Positions 4,019 to 43,228 are shown, counted from the first letter of the stretch. The stretch is 64,000 bases of DNA from Peptococcaceae bacterium BICA1-8 (GCA_000802045.1 JUEF01000030.1:11767-75766); one strand, 5' to 3'. Notes: a model not told the origin generated them from the letters alone. A program made the numbers and translations.

Positions 4019-4440
4019 CTAAAGTACCCTCCCCATTTTTATTAGTTTATTAACACTATCATGACTCAACCTTTATCAAAACGAGAAATTCTATTTACCA
4101 TTGGAAATAACATTTTCTTCTATTCTTCATCTATTCATCTCTTAAACAAAGACAGGCAAAAATTGAACTCCCATATGTATGTGCCTTCTGCAGACGGTTC
4201 AGTACAACACAAGATTCATGAAGTTCTATATTCTTTTGTGCCATTTCAAAGGTCTCTCAGCTATTATGCTCCGAGGTCTTTTTTACTTTATTCATGGAAC
4301 ATCATAAATCTCTAATTTGTTATCTGACGGTTCGCCCTCATAGACTACCAAAAAGTTATTATTTGGGTGAAATCAGGAGCTTAGGTTTTGCTTGCAAATC
4401 TTAACCCCTAGCGAGCTGGCGTAGTCCATCAAAGGTGGAT

Positions 4441-5358
4441 TTAACGCTCTATTCCGAACAAATCACTTACCGATTTGTGCTTACGATGTAACAGCCAGGC
4501 TACGATCATGCCAAAAATAAATGTGGAAGAAGCTGTCTCTATCATGTGACTAAAGCGTACGCTTGCAATCGGTATAAGCGGATTTTCCAAAATGTGACCA
4601 ATGTTCTGCGGGATACTAAAGAGCAGACCTACAAGGATAGCCGTCCACCAGGCATTGATCTTTGAGCAACGAATAACCGGAAGAGCGCACAATGTCCAAA
4701 GCATGGCACGAAGAATCTGGAAGGAAAATAACCCAGGATCTGTACGCAAGGTATTGGATGTATGCGTCCAAAAAGGCAGAATTTCTCCCGGGCTTCCATA
4801 AAAAGCTCGTAACTCTGGGTTTTGCCAGGCAATGAAATATCCAGCACTCCAATACAGGACAAGATAGGCCATAACGATAACGACCAACTTCAATGCCCAC
4901 TGTTTCACGGGCATGACAAGTGCTGGATTAGACACTGAATCAGCCTTTCCACGACCTTTACCCAAAACCAACACCCCCAGTGGGACAAAGAAGAACGCGA
5001 TCGGAAAACCCATCACAAACAAACGTGGTAAAAGTTGTGCTCCAACCGTAATATTAGAAAGGAAATACCATGTCTCGATTTGCATAATGAATGTTACTGC
5101 ACCGTAATAGGCAAAAGATAATCCCAAGGCTAGTTTCCAGCCGCTCCAACGTGAGCTCAGAACCAGCCCCATCACCAACAGCGTATTGACAATACTAATA
5201 ATTAACATGCCAGTTTCCGCCGATACAAGCCCTGGCTCTGATTTGATATTCGGTATCAGCCCCAAAACAGCCTGCGCTCCACCGATGAAGAAGACGTTGA
5301 ACAACACGACAAGTACAATAAAACGTAAAATCCAACCTAGAACAGAAAAAGCCTTCAT
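4441..5358 (-). CDS. polytopic integral membrane protein, unknown family
   Basis: 305-aa ORF with about 8 hydrophobic segments. It is visibly more GC-rich than its neighbours. The nested ORFs on either strand are artefacts. Confidence 0.6.
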   Translation of the reverse strand: MKAFSVLGWILRFIVLVVLFNVFFIGGAQAVLGLIPNIKSEPGLVSAETGMLIISIVNTLLVMGLVLSSRWSGWKLALGLSFAYYGAVTFIMQIETWYFLSNITVGAQLLPRLFVMGFPIAFFFVPLGVLVLGKGRGKADSVSNPALVMPVKQWALKLVVIVMAYLVLYWSAGYFIAWQNPELRAFYGSPGEILPFWTHTSNTLRTDPGLFSFQILRAMLWTLCALPVIRCSKINAWWTAILVGLLFSIPQNIGHILENPLIPIASVRFSHMIETASSTFIFGMIVAWLLHRKHKSVSDLFGIER

Positions 5359-5547
5359 AATTTACTCTCCTAACTCAATTATTTAGAGCATGTAAAACCT
5401 TGACTAAGTTTTATGCAGCAGTATCTAGCATTTCATTCTTTTATAACCGAGTATTTCACCTAATGACCCTGAGCTTTGCGACGTCGGGGCTTAATAATAA
5501 CCTTCTGATGGTTGATATATTCACATGGAAATTACCTCATAATATCC

Positions 5548-6156
5548 TCATACCTTTTTGAGAATCATTCTAACACTGAAATATATCAATAAAAAACCAA
5601 CAGTAACATTCAAGATTTGTATTACATTATCCGCGAAAAACGTCTTAGCAAAGCTTCCGATTAAAGCAATTAACGTTAAAAAGAACATCGTCGATAATAA
5701 TGCTCCAAATCCAAATAAGTAAATGTCTTTTCTTTTCATGTCTTCTTCTGCGATTTTGGCTGAAAATACACCTGCCCAGAAAATTATTGTAAGGGGATTT
5801 GAAGCAGTGAGGATGATTGCAGTAGAAAATAAATTATTTGAATAATAAATATTCTGTATACTTAAGCTCGGCAAGAAACTAATATTAAATTGACTTAGAA
5901 CTGTGCTAAATCCAAAAATAAACAAGATGGCAGAGCCAAATATTTTTAAACTAAATTTTATATTTTTTTTCTCAATTATCGAAGCTATACCAAGAATAGC
6001 AGTAAGAATAAAAAAACCATCAATTAAAACAACACCTAATACCCCTGTTTCTGCAAAATAAAATCCTCTTAATGACGCCATTTGGAAAATAAAAATACAA
6101 ACAGGGCCTATTGCAAATTGTAATACCATTCCAAAATTGAAACCTTTAAAAATCAT
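5548..6156 (-). CDS. LysE family amino-acid exporter
   Basis: 202-aa, 6-TM protein with LysE-type organisation. It overlaps the upstream Lrp/AsnC gene by 4 nt. Confidence 0.75.
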   Translation of the reverse strand: MIFKGFNFGMVLQFAIGPVCIFIFQMASLRGFYFAETGVLGVVLIDGFFILTAILGIASIIEKKNIKFSLKIFGSAILFIFGFSTVLSQFNISFLPSLSIQNIYYSNNLFSTAIILTASNPLTIIFWAGVFSAKIAEEDMKRKDIYLFGFGALLSTMFFLTLIALIGSFAKTFFADNVIQILNVTVGFLLIYFSVRMILKKV

Positions 6157-6617
6157 TTTGCATAACTCTCAATATTAATATTTTCTTTTAAAGAGGAAAG
6201 AGCAATTATTGTATTTGATTTAAGTACACCTTTAATTTTCTTTAGAATATTTGATAAAAAATTTTCCAGGGATTTGGTATCTTCTACAAGTATTTTTAAT
6301 AAATAATCATATTCACCGACAACATGGTGGCACTCTAATACAGAATTACATTGAACAATAGATTTTCTAAAATCTTCTATATTCTCTGTTTTATCAATAT
6401 TGACAAAAACAAAGGCCAAAAGCTTGTAGTTGATTTTCTCTCTATTAATTTTTATTGTGTATTTTTCAATTATCTTTGCTTCCTCCATTTTTCTTATTCT
6501 TTCTGCTACCGCAGGAATGGAGAGGCTTACTTTTTTGCTTATTTCCGAAGTAGTTGCCCTGCTATTTTCTTTCAAGACATTAATAATTTTCAAATCAATT
6601 GTGTCCATAATAATCAC
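6153..6617 (-). CDS. Lrp/AsnC family transcriptional regulator
   Basis: LDxxDxKIL-type start (IDLKIINVLKENSRATTSEISKKVSLSIPAVAERIRKME), an HTH_AsnC plus RAM domain layout. Confidence 0.9.
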   Translation of the reverse strand: MIIMDTIDLKIINVLKENSRATTSEISKKVSLSIPAVAERIRKMEEAKIIEKYTIKINREKINYKLLAFVFVNIDKTENIEDFRKSIVQCNSVLECHHVVGEYDYLLKILVEDTKSLENFLSNILKKIKGVLKSNTIIALSSLKENINIESYAK

Positions 6618-7025
6618 CTCGTTTCTTAAATTAATGCTATTCTACACATTAGTTTAAATAAAGTAAATCTTTTCTTAAAATACATTAATATCTTAGGAAA
6701 TTCATGTTTTTACTTTCAATATTTAAACTTCATAGCATAAAATTTAGCATTAAACTTAAAAAACAGAAAGTGGCATTATATATTAGATATATCATATATA
6801 AAACCATAAGAAACTCTCAGAGGCAGACTCAGGTTGGGGTTGATGAGATAACAACCAACCAACTCTTCTAGACACAAGCCAAAATATAAAGGTAGTCTTA
6901 TCATTAGAACCATACAGTAAATGTGCTGTCTCAACCGTTCGTATAGAACTACTACAAATACACTTTGGCCAATGGCACCAAAGTAGCCCAAGTGCTACTT
7001 TTTTTTCGTAGTCTGCCGACTTTAA

Positions 7026-7245
7026 GATAACGTCCAAGCACTCACGACGCCGAGAGCCTTTGCTAGCTTACCCGGTATTGGAATAGGCTGTGGAAAGATT
7101 ACCGTACACCAGCTGGTCTGGCATTTTTTGGCCATGACTACTACGGCTTTCGCTTCCGGCATAATGTCCGCAGGATTGAAACCCGGCGGTGCTCAAGTAA
7201 AACGCTCCAAGGAAGCCACGCCCACTAGATCAGCCTGAAATTCTT
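7026..7245 (-). pseudogene. N-terminal fragment of an Fe-S oxidoreductase-like gene with an in-frame stop
   Basis: Frame reads FQADLVGVASLERFT*APPGFNPADIMPEAKAVVVMAKK. The ADLVG(V/I)A..ERF..AP.G..P.D..P.AK.V(V/I)V pattern is typical of N-termini in the epoxyqueuosine-reductase/reductive-dehalogenase-like Fe-S family. TGA at 7193-7195. No start codon. Confidence 0.4.
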
Positions 7246-7262
7246 TCTATCATGGATAATGT

Positions 7263-7952
7263 TCATAATCTTAAACACAAGGTTTTACTCTCACACTTTA
7301 TTTTTTTAACAAATTTCAAGTTAGATAATTCTATCGAACCTTCTAATTTGTTTTCACTAAATGGCCTAATTACAAAGCAGATTTCTCTAAACCCATTACT
7401 AGAATTAAATAAGTCTTTTAGCTTACAAAAAAAGATTGTTTCTGTAGGAGCTACAGGGATATTAATTTTATTTTCTAAATTTCCAAACTTCGCTTCAAGT
7501 ACAAAAGTTTTAATGTCTGTTGATTTACATTTAAAGCTCAAGTAGTATCCCTTATCATAATACTCTTCTAAATCATCGATACCTGTAATTACATAACTTA
7601 CCCAATTGTCTGAATTATCAGTGATATGATGATACTTTAATGCCAGTATGTTATTATTTGCGTATGCTTCAATTGTTCCTGGCAACTCATAACTAGTATA
7701 AATACCTCTTTTTTTGCCTAACCCATTTTCTATGTTAACTAACTTAGCTAATTCTAACGAAGTAAATTGAAAATCATCAAGTTCTCTTTCTTTTAAATTT
7801 TTAAATATTTCTCTTATACCACTTAAACTATTTAATATTTTTTTCTGAAATCTTTTAGAAAAAAAGAATACTACAGCCAGAATCATACTTAGAATCCCTA
7901 TCATATTAAGAAAAATACTACTTATATCACTAAATGATTTTAAAAAATGCAT
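7263..7952 (-). CDS. orphan membrane-anchored protein (N-terminal TM plus beta-rich domain)
   Basis: 229-aa AT-rich ORF with RBS AGGGGG upstream. No recognisable family. Confidence 0.5.
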   Translation of the reverse strand: MHFLKSFSDISSIFLNMIGILSMILAVVFFFSKRFQKKILNSLSGIREIFKNLKERELDDFQFTSLELAKLVNIENGLGKKRGIYTSYELPGTIEAYANNNILALKYHHITDNSDNWVSYVITGIDDLEEYYDKGYYLSFKCKSTDIKTFVLEAKFGNLENKINIPVAPTETIFFCKLKDLFNSSNGFREICFVIRPFSENKLEGSIELSNLKFVKKIKCESKTLCLRL

Positions 7953-7999
7953 TTTCTTTTCCCCCTATTTGTTATTAATTTTATTTATGACCCATAAGG

Positions 8000-8215
8000 A
8001 ATACCCTAGACGACTATTTCACATAACGATTGTGTTTTGCCGACGTCCTTGAGCCTTCAGGTGACCGCTCATGCCGGGGACCCTTTGGGTAAGCTAACAC
8101 GGGCACCGACTCGGTTGGTGAAAGGATGTGGCGCGCATGCCCCAAATCCCAGCTCAACGCGCCTTTACGGCAAAACTGGGTTATCGGATGGATGAGGCCG
8201 CAGCAAGAGCCGCAT
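8000..8215. other. GC-rich ORF-free structured segment (right-hand half of the split element)
   Basis: 9-bp long-range inverted repeat GTTTTGCCG (8034-8042) / CGGCAAAAC (8168-8176). Local hairpin GCCGC-ATGGAC-GCGGC. No credible reading frame. Confidence 0.4.
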
Positions 8216-8230
8216 GGACGCGGCGACCTT
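8216..8230. repeat. 15-bp direct repeat, copy 1 (GGACGCGGCGACCTT)
   Basis: 14/15 identical to 9030-9044. The two copies bracket the AT-rich two-ORF block. Confidence 0.8.
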
Positions 8231-8239
8231 TAATAGCAT

Positions 8240-8779
8240 TTATAAATCCAGTGTATTAAAAAATGCCTGTAGTTCCTCATTGCTTTTTTCATGCTTTATT
8301 CTATACTCATTAAATTCTTGTATAGGTAGGACAATCTTATATTTTTCTTGCTTAAAAATATTATTATTTCTTGTCGACACTATGAGCTTAAATTCAAAAT
8401 CGTTGATCCAATTAATTGTATTAAGATAATCCTCACGATTCGCACCTGATACTTCAAGATATATAATTAAAATCTTATTCACAGTTTTTTTTGGTTCCAA
8501 GACTATAGGGTATTTAACTTGCGTTTTGTGTTTCATAAATTCTAAAGGTGTAAAAATCTCTTCTTCAGACACAAAGTATTCCGTGAATTTGACATTAACC
8601 TTACTTAATAAAAATTCATCTTTAATTTTACTGAATTTTACTAATTCAACAATAATGTCTTCAATAATCCCAACATTATTACCAAAGTTATTAATAAACA
8701 AATTATAATTTACCATTAAATCAATATAGTTTTCTCCACAATCCTTAGCTTTAAAATGATATTGACGCAACGGAGACAC
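8240..8779 (-). CDS. orphan soluble protein
   Basis: 179-aa AT-rich ORF immediately downstream of the 66-aa membrane ORF. No recognisable motif. Confidence 0.45.
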   Translation of the reverse strand: MSPLRQYHFKAKDCGENYIDLMVNYNLFINNFGNNVGIIEDIIVELVKFSKIKDEFLLSKVNVKFTEYFVSEEEIFTPLEFMKHKTQVKYPIVLEPKKTVNKILIIYLEVSGANREDYLNTINWINDFEFKLIVSTRNNNIFKQEKYKIVLPIQEFNEYRIKHEKSNEELQAFFNTLDL

Positions 8780-8787
8780 ACTGACAT

Positions 8788-8988
8788 TTATTTCTGAGAA
8801 TTTTCAAGATATATTCTATAATTTGCAACAATAAATCCTATTAATAGAATTGCAGTAAATAAATATGATGGCAACTCAATATTTCCATAATATGTTATTA
8901 GCATTCCAATGACATCTAACCCTAGACATATAAGCAAAACACTATTTTTAATAATAAGTGACAAATAGGTAACTAATTTATTCATCAA
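8788..8988 (-). CDS. small two-TM membrane protein
   Basis: 66-aa ORF with two hydrophobic helices and RBS AAAGGAG upstream. Confidence 0.45.
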   Translation of the reverse strand: MMNKLVTYLSLIIKNSVLLICLGLDVIGMLITYYGNIELPSYLFTAILLIGFIVANYRIYLENSQK

Positions 8989-9029
8989 AAACTCCTTTTC
9001 TGTACTTTATTTAATAAACAGCCGTTACA

Positions 9030-9044
9030 GGACGCGGCGGCCTT
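9030..9044. repeat. 15-bp direct repeat, copy 2 (GGACGCGGCGGCCTT)
   Basis: See 8216-8230. Confidence 0.8.
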
Positions 9045-9890
9045 GCCTCATCTTTCCGAGTCATGGTAGACGCATCGGTTACCCGACGCACCGGGCTCCT
9101 CGAGAATACTCCCTTCCGTAATCGGCTATCATTAATAGCCTCTTGGTATTTTTCGCAGTGAGGTTGGCACCATTTATCCAGCCCTGCATGTCCGGTAGGT
9201 GTTTCCTTTGCAAATTGCGTATTCCCGTTAATCCCTTCCCCATGTAGCCGGCTCTCTCGACCTCATAGTAATATGGATTAATCCGACTTCCTATAGGTCT
9301 TCGGTCAGCCTCTTTGTCGATTGCACATTCCTACCAATAATATTTATATAACTGGAACCTATAGGATCTCCCAAGTTCCGGATACTTCTCTCCATACATG
9401 CCACGTTCTAGGACCCCGACAGACCCTCCAAAATCTCACCAATAGCGATTTTTTTGTATTACTTCCGTGACATTAAACACGTCGTCATCTGCATTTTCCT
9501 CTGTTTCCAGAGTCCACGGTTAACGGGGCTCAATTGTGCTTCAGGGATTACGGTCTCCCTTATGGCCTATATGGTTCTCTAGGTAAAGAATCTAAGCGAT
9601 TCACACAAAAACTAAAAAAAGGTTTTTGGTTCTCTGCTTATGTGTACATTCACCTAGCAGTTACCAGTTTCGGCGCAACACTCGATATGGGTGGCTGGTT
9701 AGGCCTTGCCCAACAGGGACTTTCACCCTGCAAGAAGTACCAAACTTCGCTTGGCGTACTAACGTTCCCGGCATTCCCGACGCTCACCAACCTTAACGCC
9801 TTACCCAATAGGGTGAGTGTGGTCCGGCATGCTACTTGATTAAACTATACCGGACCCGTAAGTGGGAATGGACGTGTTAGCCGGGGTAGC
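9045..9890 (-). ncRNA. GC-rich ORF-free structured segment, family unassigned (degenerate group-II-intron-like or other large ncRNA, or decayed DNA)
   Basis: About 0.85 kb with no credible ORF in six frames and many local hairpins. On the minus strand, GAGCCCGGU-GCGUCGG-GUAA-CCGAUGC (9058-9098) resembles a domain-5-like GNRA hairpin with an AGC base. GGGUGAAAGUCCC lies near 9717-9729. Confidence 0.3.
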
Positions 9891-9895
9891 ATCTT

Positions 9896-10684
9896 TTAAA
9901 AAGGTATATCCTCTTTTCGTATCAAAAGTGAATCTACAAGATAAGTAATATAGGCAGCAACTAAATTTAAAATCAGTTCCGCCTCAGTTTCTGTAACTTT
10001 GGATCCTTCAGGAGATGAATGTGCAACGCCCTGACTTTCACCCCGAAAAGCATATATTTTAATAATACTTTCAGTAATAGTGGGGGGAATATTGATTAAA
10101 TCCGATTTTTGGAGTTCCCGAATTGCCTTGGTAAAATTTACTGACGCCTTCTTACCCGTAATGATTTCTATACAAGACTCTAATGCACACATAGATTCCT
10201 TTACACAATTAGTTAAATCCGGAATAGGCTTTTCCCCGAAAAACTTAAGTGCCTTATTATAATGTTGCCTCACTAAATATAATTCGCTGTTGGAGAGGAT
10301 TGCCCCCATTCTCTTAATACTCTTCTGTGTATGTAGTCTTCCTTCTCTCTCAAACTGTCCATTGTTAAATCTATAATCTAAATTTTCTTCACATAACAAA
10401 TTATTAATTTCATGTGTAAAATACTCTTTTACTTCTTCAATAGATACTAATATCTGCATTAATTGGTTATCACGGACATCAGTTAAAAGTATTGCATATA
10501 TTCGTTCACAAAGTGAATATATCTTGTACCATTCTACACTTTGAAGCAACCAATTAAACTCATCTAGGTAAGTTTGAAAATTGTTATAGCCTTTTTCTAC
10601 CCGTCCAAGTCGATATAACTCATTAAGAACAGTTCCCCATGCCGAGGAGTTATTGTTTTCTGCAATATAACGCCGATGTACCAT
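9896..10684 (-). CDS. AbiJ-N-terminal-domain / HEPN-like (Abi_C-like) protein, possibly 5'-truncated
   Basis: 262 aa. The C-terminal FRGESQGVAHSS resembles the R-x(n)-H HEPN/Abi_C motif. The frame is open upstream (LFEKPISDDFPNTVRIGLSFIIED) but has no start codon there. Confidence 0.45.
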   Translation of the reverse strand: MVHRRYIAENNNSSAWGTVLNELYRLGRVEKGYNNFQTYLDEFNWLLQSVEWYKIYSLCERIYAILLTDVRDNQLMQILVSIEEVKEYFTHEINNLLCEENLDYRFNNGQFEREGRLHTQKSIKRMGAILSNSELYLVRQHYNKALKFFGEKPIPDLTNCVKESMCALESCIEIITGKKASVNFTKAIRELQKSDLINIPPTITESIIKIYAFRGESQGVAHSSPEGSKVTETEAELILNLVAAYITYLVDSLLIRKEDIPF

Positions 10685-15592: not shown

Positions 15593-15900
15593 ATTCTACA
15601 ACTCCTTCTATGTAACTTATTTCAGTTTTTCATTAAAAAGTTCATCTGATGAATTTGTTATGTTTAGATTGTTTGTACTTACATGGGTATAAATTTCTGT
15701 AGTTTTTAAAATATTAATTCATCTTATCACCAAATTTTTACATAATAATTAAGTATTCCGTTCTTCTTCTCACTTTCCTTCCCCAAAATTCCCCTTAATT
15801 TCGACAAAATTAAGGCTCCATTTAAAGAAAATGCTTAGTCTAAACCAAGTTATCTATTTAATGGTATGATATAGAAGATCTACAAATTTCTTATCTGGCG

Positions 15901-41255: not shown

Positions 41256-43228
41256 AAGGCATCCACCTCCGCCAAGATTTGTTCATTAGTAAAGTGCTTC
41301 AAGTTTAAGGCTGCAGAACGGCAGGCTACTGTACAAGCACCACAGCCCTGGCACAAACCGCTATTAACATTCGCAACCTTACGGCTAACTGTTTTGCCGT
41401 GAATTCTTTCTTGAATAACCTTAAGGTCAATTGCTGTATAAGGGCAAACTGGTACACACATACCACAACCAGAGCATATTGCCTCATTGACAGCAGAAAT
41501 AATCGGTTCTGTCGGCATTTCTTCCTTAGACAAGAGACCGCAGACCTTAACAGCGGCCGCACTAGCCTGAGCAACAGATTCAGGTATATCTTTCGGTCCC
41601 TGACACGCCCCTGCTAAGAAAACACCAGCAGTATGAGTTTCAACTGGAGCCAGCTTGGGATGAGCTTCAGTATAAAAATGGTTCTGGTCATAGGAGAAAC
41701 CAACCATTTGAGCAAGTTTTGCAGCATCAGCTTTGGCAACCATAGCTGTAGCTAAGACTACCATATCTGCTTCGATTTCCACAGGTCGTCCTAAAAGGGT
41801 ATCTTCACCCCAGACAATAAGCTTATCACCCTTTTCATAAATCTTAGATACCCTACCCCTAATATACTTGGCTCCATATTGATCAGTTGTCCGGGTGTAA
41901 AATTCATCATAACCCTTGCCAGGTGTCCGGACATCCATATAAAAGACATAAGCATTTGAATCTTTAATCTTTTCTCGCACCAGTGTTGCATGTTTTGCTG
42001 TATACATACAGCAGGTTTTAGAGCAATAAGCTTTACCTTTAGCTTCATCTCGGGAACCTACACATTTAATAAACACTACGTTTTGTGGTATTTTACCGTC
42101 AGAAGGCCGTTTGATTTTTCCCATGGTAGGACCGGAGGCATTTAACAATCTTTCAAAATGCAATCCGGTAATAACATCCTTATATTTGCCATAGCCATAT
42201 TCACCATAGACACTTTCATCAAAGAGGTCAAAACCAGTAGCGACTACGATGGCACCATAACGTTCTGTAACTAGTTCATCTTCTTGGGTAAAGTCTACCG
42301 CATTTGTTGGGCACACCTTTTGACAGACCCCGCACTTCCCGGATTTAAAGTATCGGCAGTTTTCTCTGTCGATTACCGGCTTATTGGGGATTGCCTGCGG
42401 AAATGGGGTATAAATAGCCTTTCGATCCATCATTTCCATTTCAAACTCACTAGGCACCTTTGTTGGGCACTTTTGGATACAGGTACCACAACCTGTACAG
42501 GCTTTGAGATCAACGGAACGGGCTTTTTTCCTGATAGTCACATCAAAATTGCCCACATAACCTTCTACTTTCTCTATCTCCGAATAGGTAATTAAATTAA
42601 CATTGGGATGATTGGCCACATCTACCATCTTAGGTGTTAAAATACAAGCTGAACAATCCAAAGTGGGGAAGGTCTTATCAACCTGAGCCATCCGACCACC
42701 GATAGAGGGTTCTTTTTCAACAACATCGACTATATGACCGGTGTTAGCAATATCAAGAGCTGCTTGTATTCCGGCAATCCCACCACCAATAACTAGTGCC
42801 CTCTTAGTGATAGGTATGGTCGACCTGACCAAGGCTTCATTTTGCATGACTTTGGCCACAGCCATCTTGACTAGATCTGTTGCTTTAATAGTGGCCCTTT
42901 CTTTATCATCAGGGTGAACCCAGGAGCAATGCTCTCTGATATTTGCCATTTCCAATAAGTAAGCATTTAAGCCGCCGCTTTCGATACAACGGCGAAAGGT
43001 TGGCTCATGCATCCGAGGTGAACAGGATGCCACCACGATTCTGTCTAGCTTTTGTTCCTTTATGGCTTTCTTTATTAATTCTTGTCCCGGTTCTGCACAC
43101 ATATACTTATAATCAGTACTATAGGCTACACCGGGAAAGCTTTTGGCATTTTCCGCCACTTTCTCACAATCCACTGCCGCTGAAATATTAGTACCACAGT
43201 GACAGATAAATACACCTACACGCTTCAT
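41246..43228 (-). CDS. hdrA: heterodisulfide reductase subunit A
   Basis: 660 aa. VGVFICHCGTNI start, GGGIAGIQAA FAD motif, multiple CxxCxxCxxxCP clusters. Confidence 0.9.
   Translation of the reverse strand: MKRVGVFICHCGTNISAAVDCEKVAENAKSFPGVAYSTDYKYMCAEPGQELIKKAIKEQKLDRIVVASCSPRMHEPTFRRCIESGGLNAYLLEMANIREHCSWVHPDDKERATIKATDLVKMAVAKVMQNEALVRSTIPITKRALVIGGGIAGIQAALDIANTGHIVDVVEKEPSIGGRMAQVDKTFPTLDCSACILTPKMVDVANHPNVNLITYSEIEKVEGYVGNFDVTIRKKARSVDLKACTGCGTCIQKCPTKVPSEFEMEMMDRKAIYTPFPQAIPNKPVIDRENCRYFKSGKCGVCQKVCPTNAVDFTQEDELVTERYGAIVVATGFDLFDESVYGEYGYGKYKDVITGLHFERLLNASGPTMGKIKRPSDGKIPQNVVFIKCVGSRDEAKGKAYCSKTCCMYTAKHATLVREKIKDSNAYVFYMDVRTPGKGYDEFYTRTTDQYGAKYIRGRVSKIYEKGDKLIVWGEDTLLGRPVEIEADMVVLATAMVAKADAAKLAQMVGFSYDQNHFYTEAHPKLAPVETHTAGVFLAGACQGPKDIPESVAQASAAAVKVCGLLSKEEMPTEPIISAVNEAICSGCGMCVPVCPYTAIDLKVIQERIHGKTVSRKVANVNSGLCQGCGACTVACRSAALNLKHFTNEQILAEVDALCL

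Follow-up and report, generated by a model that had tools for sequence, protein, structure and literature searches.

A group II intron without an ORF, probably dead, in an attC-like cassette boundary of a Peptococcaceae bacterium

The locus described here lies in a 64-kb stretch of DNA from Peptococcaceae bacterium BICA1-8 (hereafter the window), and its genes are read from the minus strand. An AbiJ/HEPN-like ORF of 262 amino acids comes first (9896-10684), with a match to Pfam AbiJ_NTD4 (E 2e-7) that at 31.9 bits falls slightly short of the cutoff of 34, and a weak one to Abi_C. Two AT-rich ORFs without any Pfam or NCBIfam match occupy 8240-8988, encoding 66 aa (8788-8988) and 179 aa (8240-8779), and are followed by an ORF of 229 aa (7263-7952) that the source annotation lists as hypothetical, Peptococcaceae bacterium BICA1-8. 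We treat the AbiJ/HEPN-like ORF as a cassette gene and refer to the two downstream units as Cassette B and Cassette C.

Between the AbiJ/HEPN-like gene and Cassette B, an initial annotation had singled out about 0.85 kb (9045-9890) as ORF-free and rich in hairpins. GC content in this segment is 0.42-0.52, compared with ~0.25 in the flanking ORFs. Its longest ORF is indeed only 101 aa, and neither that ORF, which had been described as non-protein-like in composition, nor one of 54 aa has a Pfam match even at E ≤ 1. The structural elements that had been pointed out are likewise present: GGTCCGG at 9821-9827 with CCGGACC at 9850-9856, GGAACC...GTTCC at 9354-9379, the motif GGGUGAAAGUCCC at ~9718-9730 on the minus strand, a hairpin reading GAGCCCGGUGCGUCGG-GUAA-CCGAUGC-GUCUACC from 9098 to 9060, and a 9-bp pairing of 8034-8042 with 8168-8176. 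The segment is real, but it is not a single unit. On the minus strand it resolves into three parts, namely attC-like sequence at 9760-9895, a group II intron at 9060-9759, and another arm of the interrupted site at 9043-9059.

The only Rfam match at the gathering threshold in the 64-kb window was to group-II-D1D4-6 (RF02005) at 9404-9723 on the minus strand. This match covers the full model (positions 1-225) with 83.1 bits against a gathering score of 49 and an E-value of 1e-21, which is far beyond chance, and it delimits the conserved ribozyme core. Models for OLE, GOLLD, ROOL, HEARO and raiA, which had been put forward alongside the group II models, produced no gathering-threshold match in the window and none at E ≤ 10 in 4300-10100. 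Within the same interval and at the same E-value, no plausible Rfam family other than group-II-D1D4-6 appeared, and the remaining matches were of the chance snoRNA type.

A pattern scan from the conserved D1 core recovered 119 loci of the same intron class from many phyla. Homology to these loci begins at ~9764, skips 9640-9581, and continues to 9087/9043. In the great majority of the relatives' loci, conservation starts at GUGCG and is preceded by CGUUA, which places the 5' end of the window intron at 9759, where the junction reads ...GGGAACGUUA|GUACGCC. The initial annotation was therefore right that a clean GUGYG is absent, but a 5' end does exist as GUACG, 130 nt inside the segment that it outlined. 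Most relatives have GUGCG, and GUACG recurs in the loci L045, L060 and L094, of which L060 has an intact domain 5 (D5); we therefore rejected it as a mark of decay in favor of a probable natural variant. An AT-rich insertion of ~60 nt inside the Rfam-matched core (9581-9640) was rejected as a decay mark because it is also found in a Clostridia MAG (L094). Its absence from L095, L079 and L060 makes it specific to a sub-lineage.

Full-length relatives (L110, L076, L075 and L040) carry a reverse transcriptase (RT) ORF of 400-490 aa after the equivalent of ~9143. At that position, alignment with both ORF-less and RT-bearing relatives leaves the window with a minimal domain 4, the short 17-nt hairpin GGCUAUUAAUGAUAGCC (9124-9140). 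The L110 protein, the only one scanned, matched RVT_1 and GIIM and nothing beyond. After the ORF, these relatives continue with GAGCCCGGUGCGGUAGUUCCGCACGCCGGGAU, a canonical 34-nt D5, and CUGUGCGGGGUGCGCCGGGUAACCGGCGCGUCUACCGUGAC, which is domain 6 (D6), and similarity stops there. Two Desulfosporosinus copies, L095 (675 nt) and L079 (648 nt), are ORF-less with intact D5 and D6, and each aligns with the window from first to last base. This alignment defines the window intron as an ORF-less element of 700 nt running from GUACG at 9759 to GAC at 9060, with a ribozyme that is ~75-85% identical to its relatives outside the deletion described below. Counting a copy as ORF-less when D5 lies within 575-820 nt of the 5' end, we found seven with intact D5 among the related loci scanned (L007, L015, L060, L068, L079, L095 and L121), spanning Firmicutes and Proteobacteria. 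Searching the 64-kb window with a relative's RT (tblastn) revealed no reverse transcriptase. The lineage is IIB-like. A candidate EBS1 motif for EBS/IBS pairing, located after AGCCCCG, did not covary with variant 5' exons and was rejected.

These alignments bear on whether the segment is an intron at all. Being GC-rich, hairpin-dense and ORF-free would also suit a different large structured RNA, whether one of the classes named above or something similar, or else a decayed protein gene. However, group-II-D1D4-6 alone passes in Rfam, the nucleotide homology is to intron RNAs from many phyla with length changes that are not multiples of three, and the ORFs of the segment match nothing in Pfam. 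We consider both ideas refuted by the Rfam result together with the alignment to ORF-less relatives, and assign them next to no probability. Of the options offered by the initial annotation, it is the degenerate ORF-less group II intron that the evidence upholds.

Insertion was precise. Across the relatives, uninterrupted sites read ...GGAACGUUA|ACUGAAAUCGG and interrupted ones ...GGAACGUUA|GUGCG, and uninterrupted sites in L088, L095 and L076 pass directly from GUUA into a right arm. Removing 9759-9060 from the window restores GUUA+UCGGAAAGAUGAGGC, the complement of an arm at 8180-8199. The uninterrupted sites and this arm complementarity thus make the intron boundaries exact.

Relative to L095 and L079, the window copy lacks 34 nt between the GGUGCG of D5 and a second GGUGCG in D6. 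The deletion took the 3' strand of D5 and the 5' strand of D6, fusing GAGCCCGGUGCG to UCGGGUAACC. What is left of D5 is its 5' strand with the AGC triad (GAGCCCGGUGCG, 9087-9098), where relatives read GAGCCCGGUGCGGUAGUUCCGCACGCCGGGAU, and the junction falls between 9087 and 9086. The upper stem, GUAA loop and 3' strand of D6 occupy 9060-9086 and align to CCGGGUAACCGGCGCGUCUACCGUGAC in relatives, with a putative branch A at 9067 and the intron end ...CCAUGAC at 9060. As a result, the 34-nt AGC-triad hairpin with its 2-nt bulge is not formed, and D6, although it keeps its 3' strand, the A and the ...GAC end, cannot form a helix without its 5' strand. Folding gave one hairpin in the window (z -0.8) compared to separate D5 (with bulge) and D6 (with bulged A) hairpins in L095 (z -2.2). 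The hairpin near the 3' end that the initial annotation likened to D5 is instead a chimera of the D5 5' strand and D6, and the imperfect lower stem remarked on there belongs to this same chimera. Its doubt about an intact intron was justified, as both helices are broken. A short deletion can evidently mimic a domain 5.

No D5 3' half was found elsewhere in the window at up to 3 mismatches. The Rfam model for D5/D6 (RF00029) had no match in the window, but in a 61-kb search at E ≤ 0.5 it was also silent on the D5/D6 of L095, L079 and L110 and detected only L040 (44 bits). Its silence in the window is therefore no evidence of loss, and the case for loss rests on the alignment. Scanning a metagenome collection for the deletion junction yielded 55 matches, none with intron context, which look like unrelated GC-rich sequence; hence, nothing suggests that the D5-less form propagates. 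Given how well the rest of the ribozyme is preserved, the deletion may be recent or the RNA may still be constrained. We also considered whether the GC islands at 9045-9890, 8000-8215 and 6800-7250 could be one intron with cargo in domain 4, and rejected this because the D5/D6 homologues at 9098-9060 come directly after the domain 4 stub.

D5 is the catalytic centre of group II ribozymes, so the window copy would be expected neither to splice nor to reverse-splice, and judging from its sequence the ribozyme should be dead. Splicing could in principle persist in vivo if the RNA of another intron copy supplied D5 in trans along with its maturase. Domains 1 to 3 are well conserved, and the abundance of ORF-less relatives with intact D5 in this lineage means that trans-acting maturases must exist in some hosts. 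Another copy may also be at hand, as Logan contig L002 ends inside the conserved D1 core 235 nt past the AbiJ stop, which fits the presence of other copies in the sample. Against this, the 64-kb window has neither an RT nor a D5, and the 5' strand of D6 is gone as well, such that the branch-site helix cannot form. Moreover, rescue by D5 in trans is known as an in vitro phenomenon or, in organelles, one that needs dedicated factors. We consider continued splicing by this route highly improbable, and loss of catalysis the far better expectation.

The sequence that surrounds the intron forms an attC-like site, W1, which is the 3' boundary of the AbiJ/HEPN-like cassette. Its outer (left) arm, AAGAUGCUACCCCGGCUAAC (9876-9895), is recognizable by its position and by its ...UAAC box, the same ending as in L088, L095, L076 and L094. 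The inner part (9760-9875) is homologous to site E1 of Desulfitispora, including the identical string CGUCGGGAAUGCCGGGAACGUUA, and comprises an inner stem CAUUCCC/GGGAAUG (9864-9870 with 9772-9778), a hairpin at 9821-9856, the spacer CCGGGAAC and the conserved core GUUA (9760-9763). That hairpin had been counted as part of the RNA of the segment, but it belongs to this cassette boundary. Beyond the intron, arm complementarity identifies UCGGAAAGAUGAGGCAA (9043-9059) as the W1 right arm and first bases of the next cassette. This stretch is 90% identical to the half-site beside the Desulfitispora recombinase. W1 thus consists of 9895-9760 plus 9059-9043, and the intron splits it exactly after the GUUA core. 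No partner arm was found upstream of the AbiJ/HEPN-like gene.

The next attC-like site, W2 (8024-8199, minus strand), has a left arm GGCCUCAUCCAUCCGAUAAC at 8180-8199, an inner stem pairing 8168-8176 with 8034-8042, a loop of ~125 nt and a GUUA core at 8024-8027. Together with GUUA, 9043-9059 is the reverse complement of the W2 left arm at 17/19 positions; that is, the two arms of Cassette B, which lies between W1 and W2, match each other. Folding W2 with the start arm of its own cassette gave -84.3 kcal/mol (z -5.0), compared with z -0.5 for the chromosomal hybrid form. What had been read as a companion piece of the intron at 8000-8215 is this site and not intron, and its 9-bp pairing is the inner stem. 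A long-range pairing of 9045-9059 with 8184-8198, which we considered as intron structure, was rejected for the same reason, as it is the signature of the cassette arms. After the 229-aa ORF of Cassette C comes a third GC-rich non-coding stretch, W3 (6800-7262, minus strand), with a GGACGUUA core at 7028-7035. It showed no convincing inner stem, matching arm or Rfam match, and may be a degenerate terminal site. W3 also contains a terminator-like hairpin at 6961-6985, and its bases 7056-7073 are complementary at 15/18 positions to 8087-8104 inside W2.

A common plan holds in W1, W2 and more than 15 sites of relatives. The outer arm ends in ...UAAC, and 0-5 nt further on begins a perfectly paired inner stem (7-14 bp) that encloses a loop of 29-179 nt; its return strand leads through a spacer of 4-8 nt (e.g., GGGAC) to GUUA and a second outer arm. 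Compensatory changes were observed in 10 of the 14 inner stem pairs across nine sites. In Desulfitispora alkaliphila (L088), a tyrosine recombinase gene precedes the half-site GUUAUCGGAAAGAUGAGG and three AT-rich ORFs parted by GC-rich elements, the third of which is interrupted by the intron at GGAACGUUA| while two uninterrupted ones continue GGAACGUUA|ACUGAAAUCGG. In 10/10 cassettes, taken from six genomes, the cassette opens with GUUA and 16 further nt that together are the reverse complement of the 20-nt stretch, ending in AAC, with which it closes. Arms of the same cassette aligned with a mean score of 12, compared to 3.6 in non-self pairs and 4.4 when the two arms belonged to a single chromosomal site. 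Cassette arms also have a recurrent 2x2 mismatch at the same position. This arm complementarity is the signature expected of cutting and joining at G|UUA, as in integrons. At proteobacterial insertion sites, a strict perfect-stem search for attC-like stems performed no better than on shuffled sequences, which limits the attC-like claim to the Firmicutes loci.

Taken together, we conclude with a probability of about 0.85 that the segment represents a group II intron that lacks an ORF, has lost its activity and occupies a recombination site of the integron type. The likely history begins with an already ORF-less member of the lineage being copied into the core of the attC-like site, directly after GUUA and in the orientation of the cassette genes, with RT presumably supplied in trans by a full-length relative. 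Slippage between the two GGUGCG repeats would later have produced the 34-nt deletion. Without a D5 helix, neither splicing nor reverse-splicing would be possible, leaving a fossil. It would now persist as 700 nt of untranslated sequence that separates the AbiJ-like cassette from the one after it. Since the right arm of W1 is 700 nt away from the rest of the site, recombination there is probably disabled. Such a fossil accounts for the apparently mysterious 0.85 kb.

The remnant might instead have been co-opted, since a cassette array with no integrase or Pc promoter beside it still requires promoters, and one report mentions outward-facing promoters for Group IIC-attC introns (PMC3001079). A promoter scan, which was itself uninformative, returned no sigma-70-like site on the minus strand in 9060-9759. 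Furthermore, the deletion junction was found nowhere else, giving no sign of selection for the D5-less form. Co-option therefore appears very unlikely, and we retain the interpretation as a fossil.

Compared with known elements, the window intron resembles the ORF-less group II introns described from bacteria (Simon et al. 2008, RNA 14:1704; PMC4424553) in being a ribozyme that has no intron-encoded protein but descends from a lineage with an RT, and in having full-length related copies in related genomes. The window copy differs in having also lost the integrity of D5 and D6. Although ORF-less introns are described as rare in bacteria (PMC4424553), seven such copies occur among the scanned loci of this lineage. 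A second parallel is with Group IIC-attC introns (S.ma.I2; Quiroga 2008; Leon & Roy 2009), which are also specialized on integron attC sites. Those are small class C ribozymes inserted into the attC bottom strand, antisense to the cassettes (PMC7923331), whereas the window lineage is ~650-700 nt long with a canonical 34-nt D5 and lies in sense orientation. The IIB introns UHB.I2 and H.ha.F1/F2 in integrons and CALINs of halophiles (Sonbol & Siam 2021, PMC7923331) likewise sit at attC sites, UHB.I2 in the cassette orientation. The H. halochloris copies, like the window intron, are truncated and found in an integrase-less array. The flanking exons of these introns were reported to lack conservation (PMC7923331), in contrast to the CGUUA that ends the 5' exon at most scanned loci of our lineage in several phyla. 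Sharing the same CGUUA across several phyla, a sense orientation and many ORF-less copies, this lineage broadens the known association of integrons with group II introns past class C.

We detected no tyrosine recombinase in the 64-kb window. The 262-aa recombinase of D. alkaliphila scored above the cutoff of NF040815 (XerA/integron integrase) but failed TIGR02249 (integron integrase; 219 versus 265). It matched archaeal XerA structures and VchIntIA (2A3V) about equally, and the VchIntIA match was split in two, which fits the absence of the IntI-specific insertion. Homologues of this recombinase are found near intron-bearing arrays in L076, L079 and L110. The loci combining recombinase and array (L110 6115-7120; L079 841-1833; L076 1862-5314; L088 5200-7341) have the recombinase gene divergent and ~140-150 bp from the first site in L110 and L079, but co-oriented in L088 and L076. 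In Desulfitobacteriia, Peptococcaceae and Desulfitispora, these loci may represent integron-like elements that are complete. In the window, tblastn aligned 14 aa at 15665-15706 (minus strand) to the C-terminus of the L088 recombinase with 71% identity (E 0.23). This match may be fortuitous, or it may mark what is left of a recombinase gene ~5 kb upstream of the array.

The intron by itself is an ordinary, routine molecular fossil; more novelty is to be expected from the Peptococcaceae cassette array. We tentatively propose, as a possibility that we would not yet favor, a previously unrecognised integron-like cassette system in Peptococcaceae, Desulfitobacteriia and related Clostridia. Its arrays would consist of promoterless cassettes parted by attC-like sites of 100-250 nt, the outer stem of each site being a long cassette-specific arm with a fixed 2x2 mismatch. 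Recombination would fall to an IntI/XerA-like tyrosine recombinase without the IntI-specific insertion, and for this reason standard integron finders might miss the system. The intron lineage would be a dedicated parasite of the GUUA core of the sites, spreading largely as ORF-less copies.

These sites share many properties with integron attC sites and CALINs (Cury 2016; IntegronFinder 2.0, PMC9024848), including inverted core boxes (...AAC / GUU...), promoterless small ORFs of defence or unknown function, and a hairpin that is imperfectly paired, varies in its loop and covaries in its inner stem. They also share the crossover signature, in which the first bases of a cassette complement the first box of its own site. 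However, the complementary arm of 6-7 nt in integrons is ~17-19 nt here, specific to the cassette and marked by the fixed 2x2 mismatch. The typical attC length is ~57-141 nt, compared to ~150-190 nt for the window sites and ~100 nt for those of relatives. The recombinase of the relatives also differs in lacking the IntI-specific insertion. Integrons are reported to be almost absent from Firmicutes, with one complete example and a few CALINs described (PMC9024848), and we found no papers on such arrays in Peptococcaceae or Desulfosporosinus. A full integron crossover signature is present in a clostridial lineage where integrons were thought nearly absent. If the recombinase moves cassettes, gene capture of the integron type would extend to more taxa and more kinds of enzyme than surveys now report. 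Cassette movement is testable in the isolates Desulfitispora alkaliphila DSM 22410 and Desulfosporosinus sp. I2.

A covariance model of short sites (R1) matched W1 at 9760-9883 (E 0.03) and identified seven sites in L095, four in L076 and three in L110, where the nearest site is 150 bp from the divergent recombinase gene. Elsewhere in the window, it detected a further attC-like site at 427-501 on the minus strand (29.1 bits, E 5e-5), just downstream of a 272-aa ORF (511-1329), and a weaker one at 31-97 on the same strand (E 0.13). Together, these look like a second small array in the same genome. A match to GRACGTTA at 42258 falls in what looks like a coding region, and we dismissed it as fortuitous.

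Immediately beyond the arms, on either side of cassettes, we noticed a short GC motif or a hairpin whose loop reads GUCC(U/AU) (GCCGCCGCGUCC...), in direct orientation. It occurs on the minus strand at several cassette ends in L088 and at 9030-9044 and 8216-8230 in the window, where it forms the direct repeat GGACGCGGCG[GA]CCTT.

DNA similarity searches gave no match in phages or E. coli genomes, and a viral pattern scan was empty. The single plasmid match, in Catenovulum, covers the D1 core only. On a Catenovulum adriaticum plasmid (NZ_CP109966, L003; 2736-5813), a maturase fragment with D5/D6 is followed by a BrnT/BrnA toxin-antitoxin pair and then by a new copy of the 5' part of the same intron after GGCGUUA, with an IS30 transposase gene ~0.8 kb beyond. 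This alternation of intron, toxin-antitoxin cassette and intron is typical of chromosomal integron arrays.
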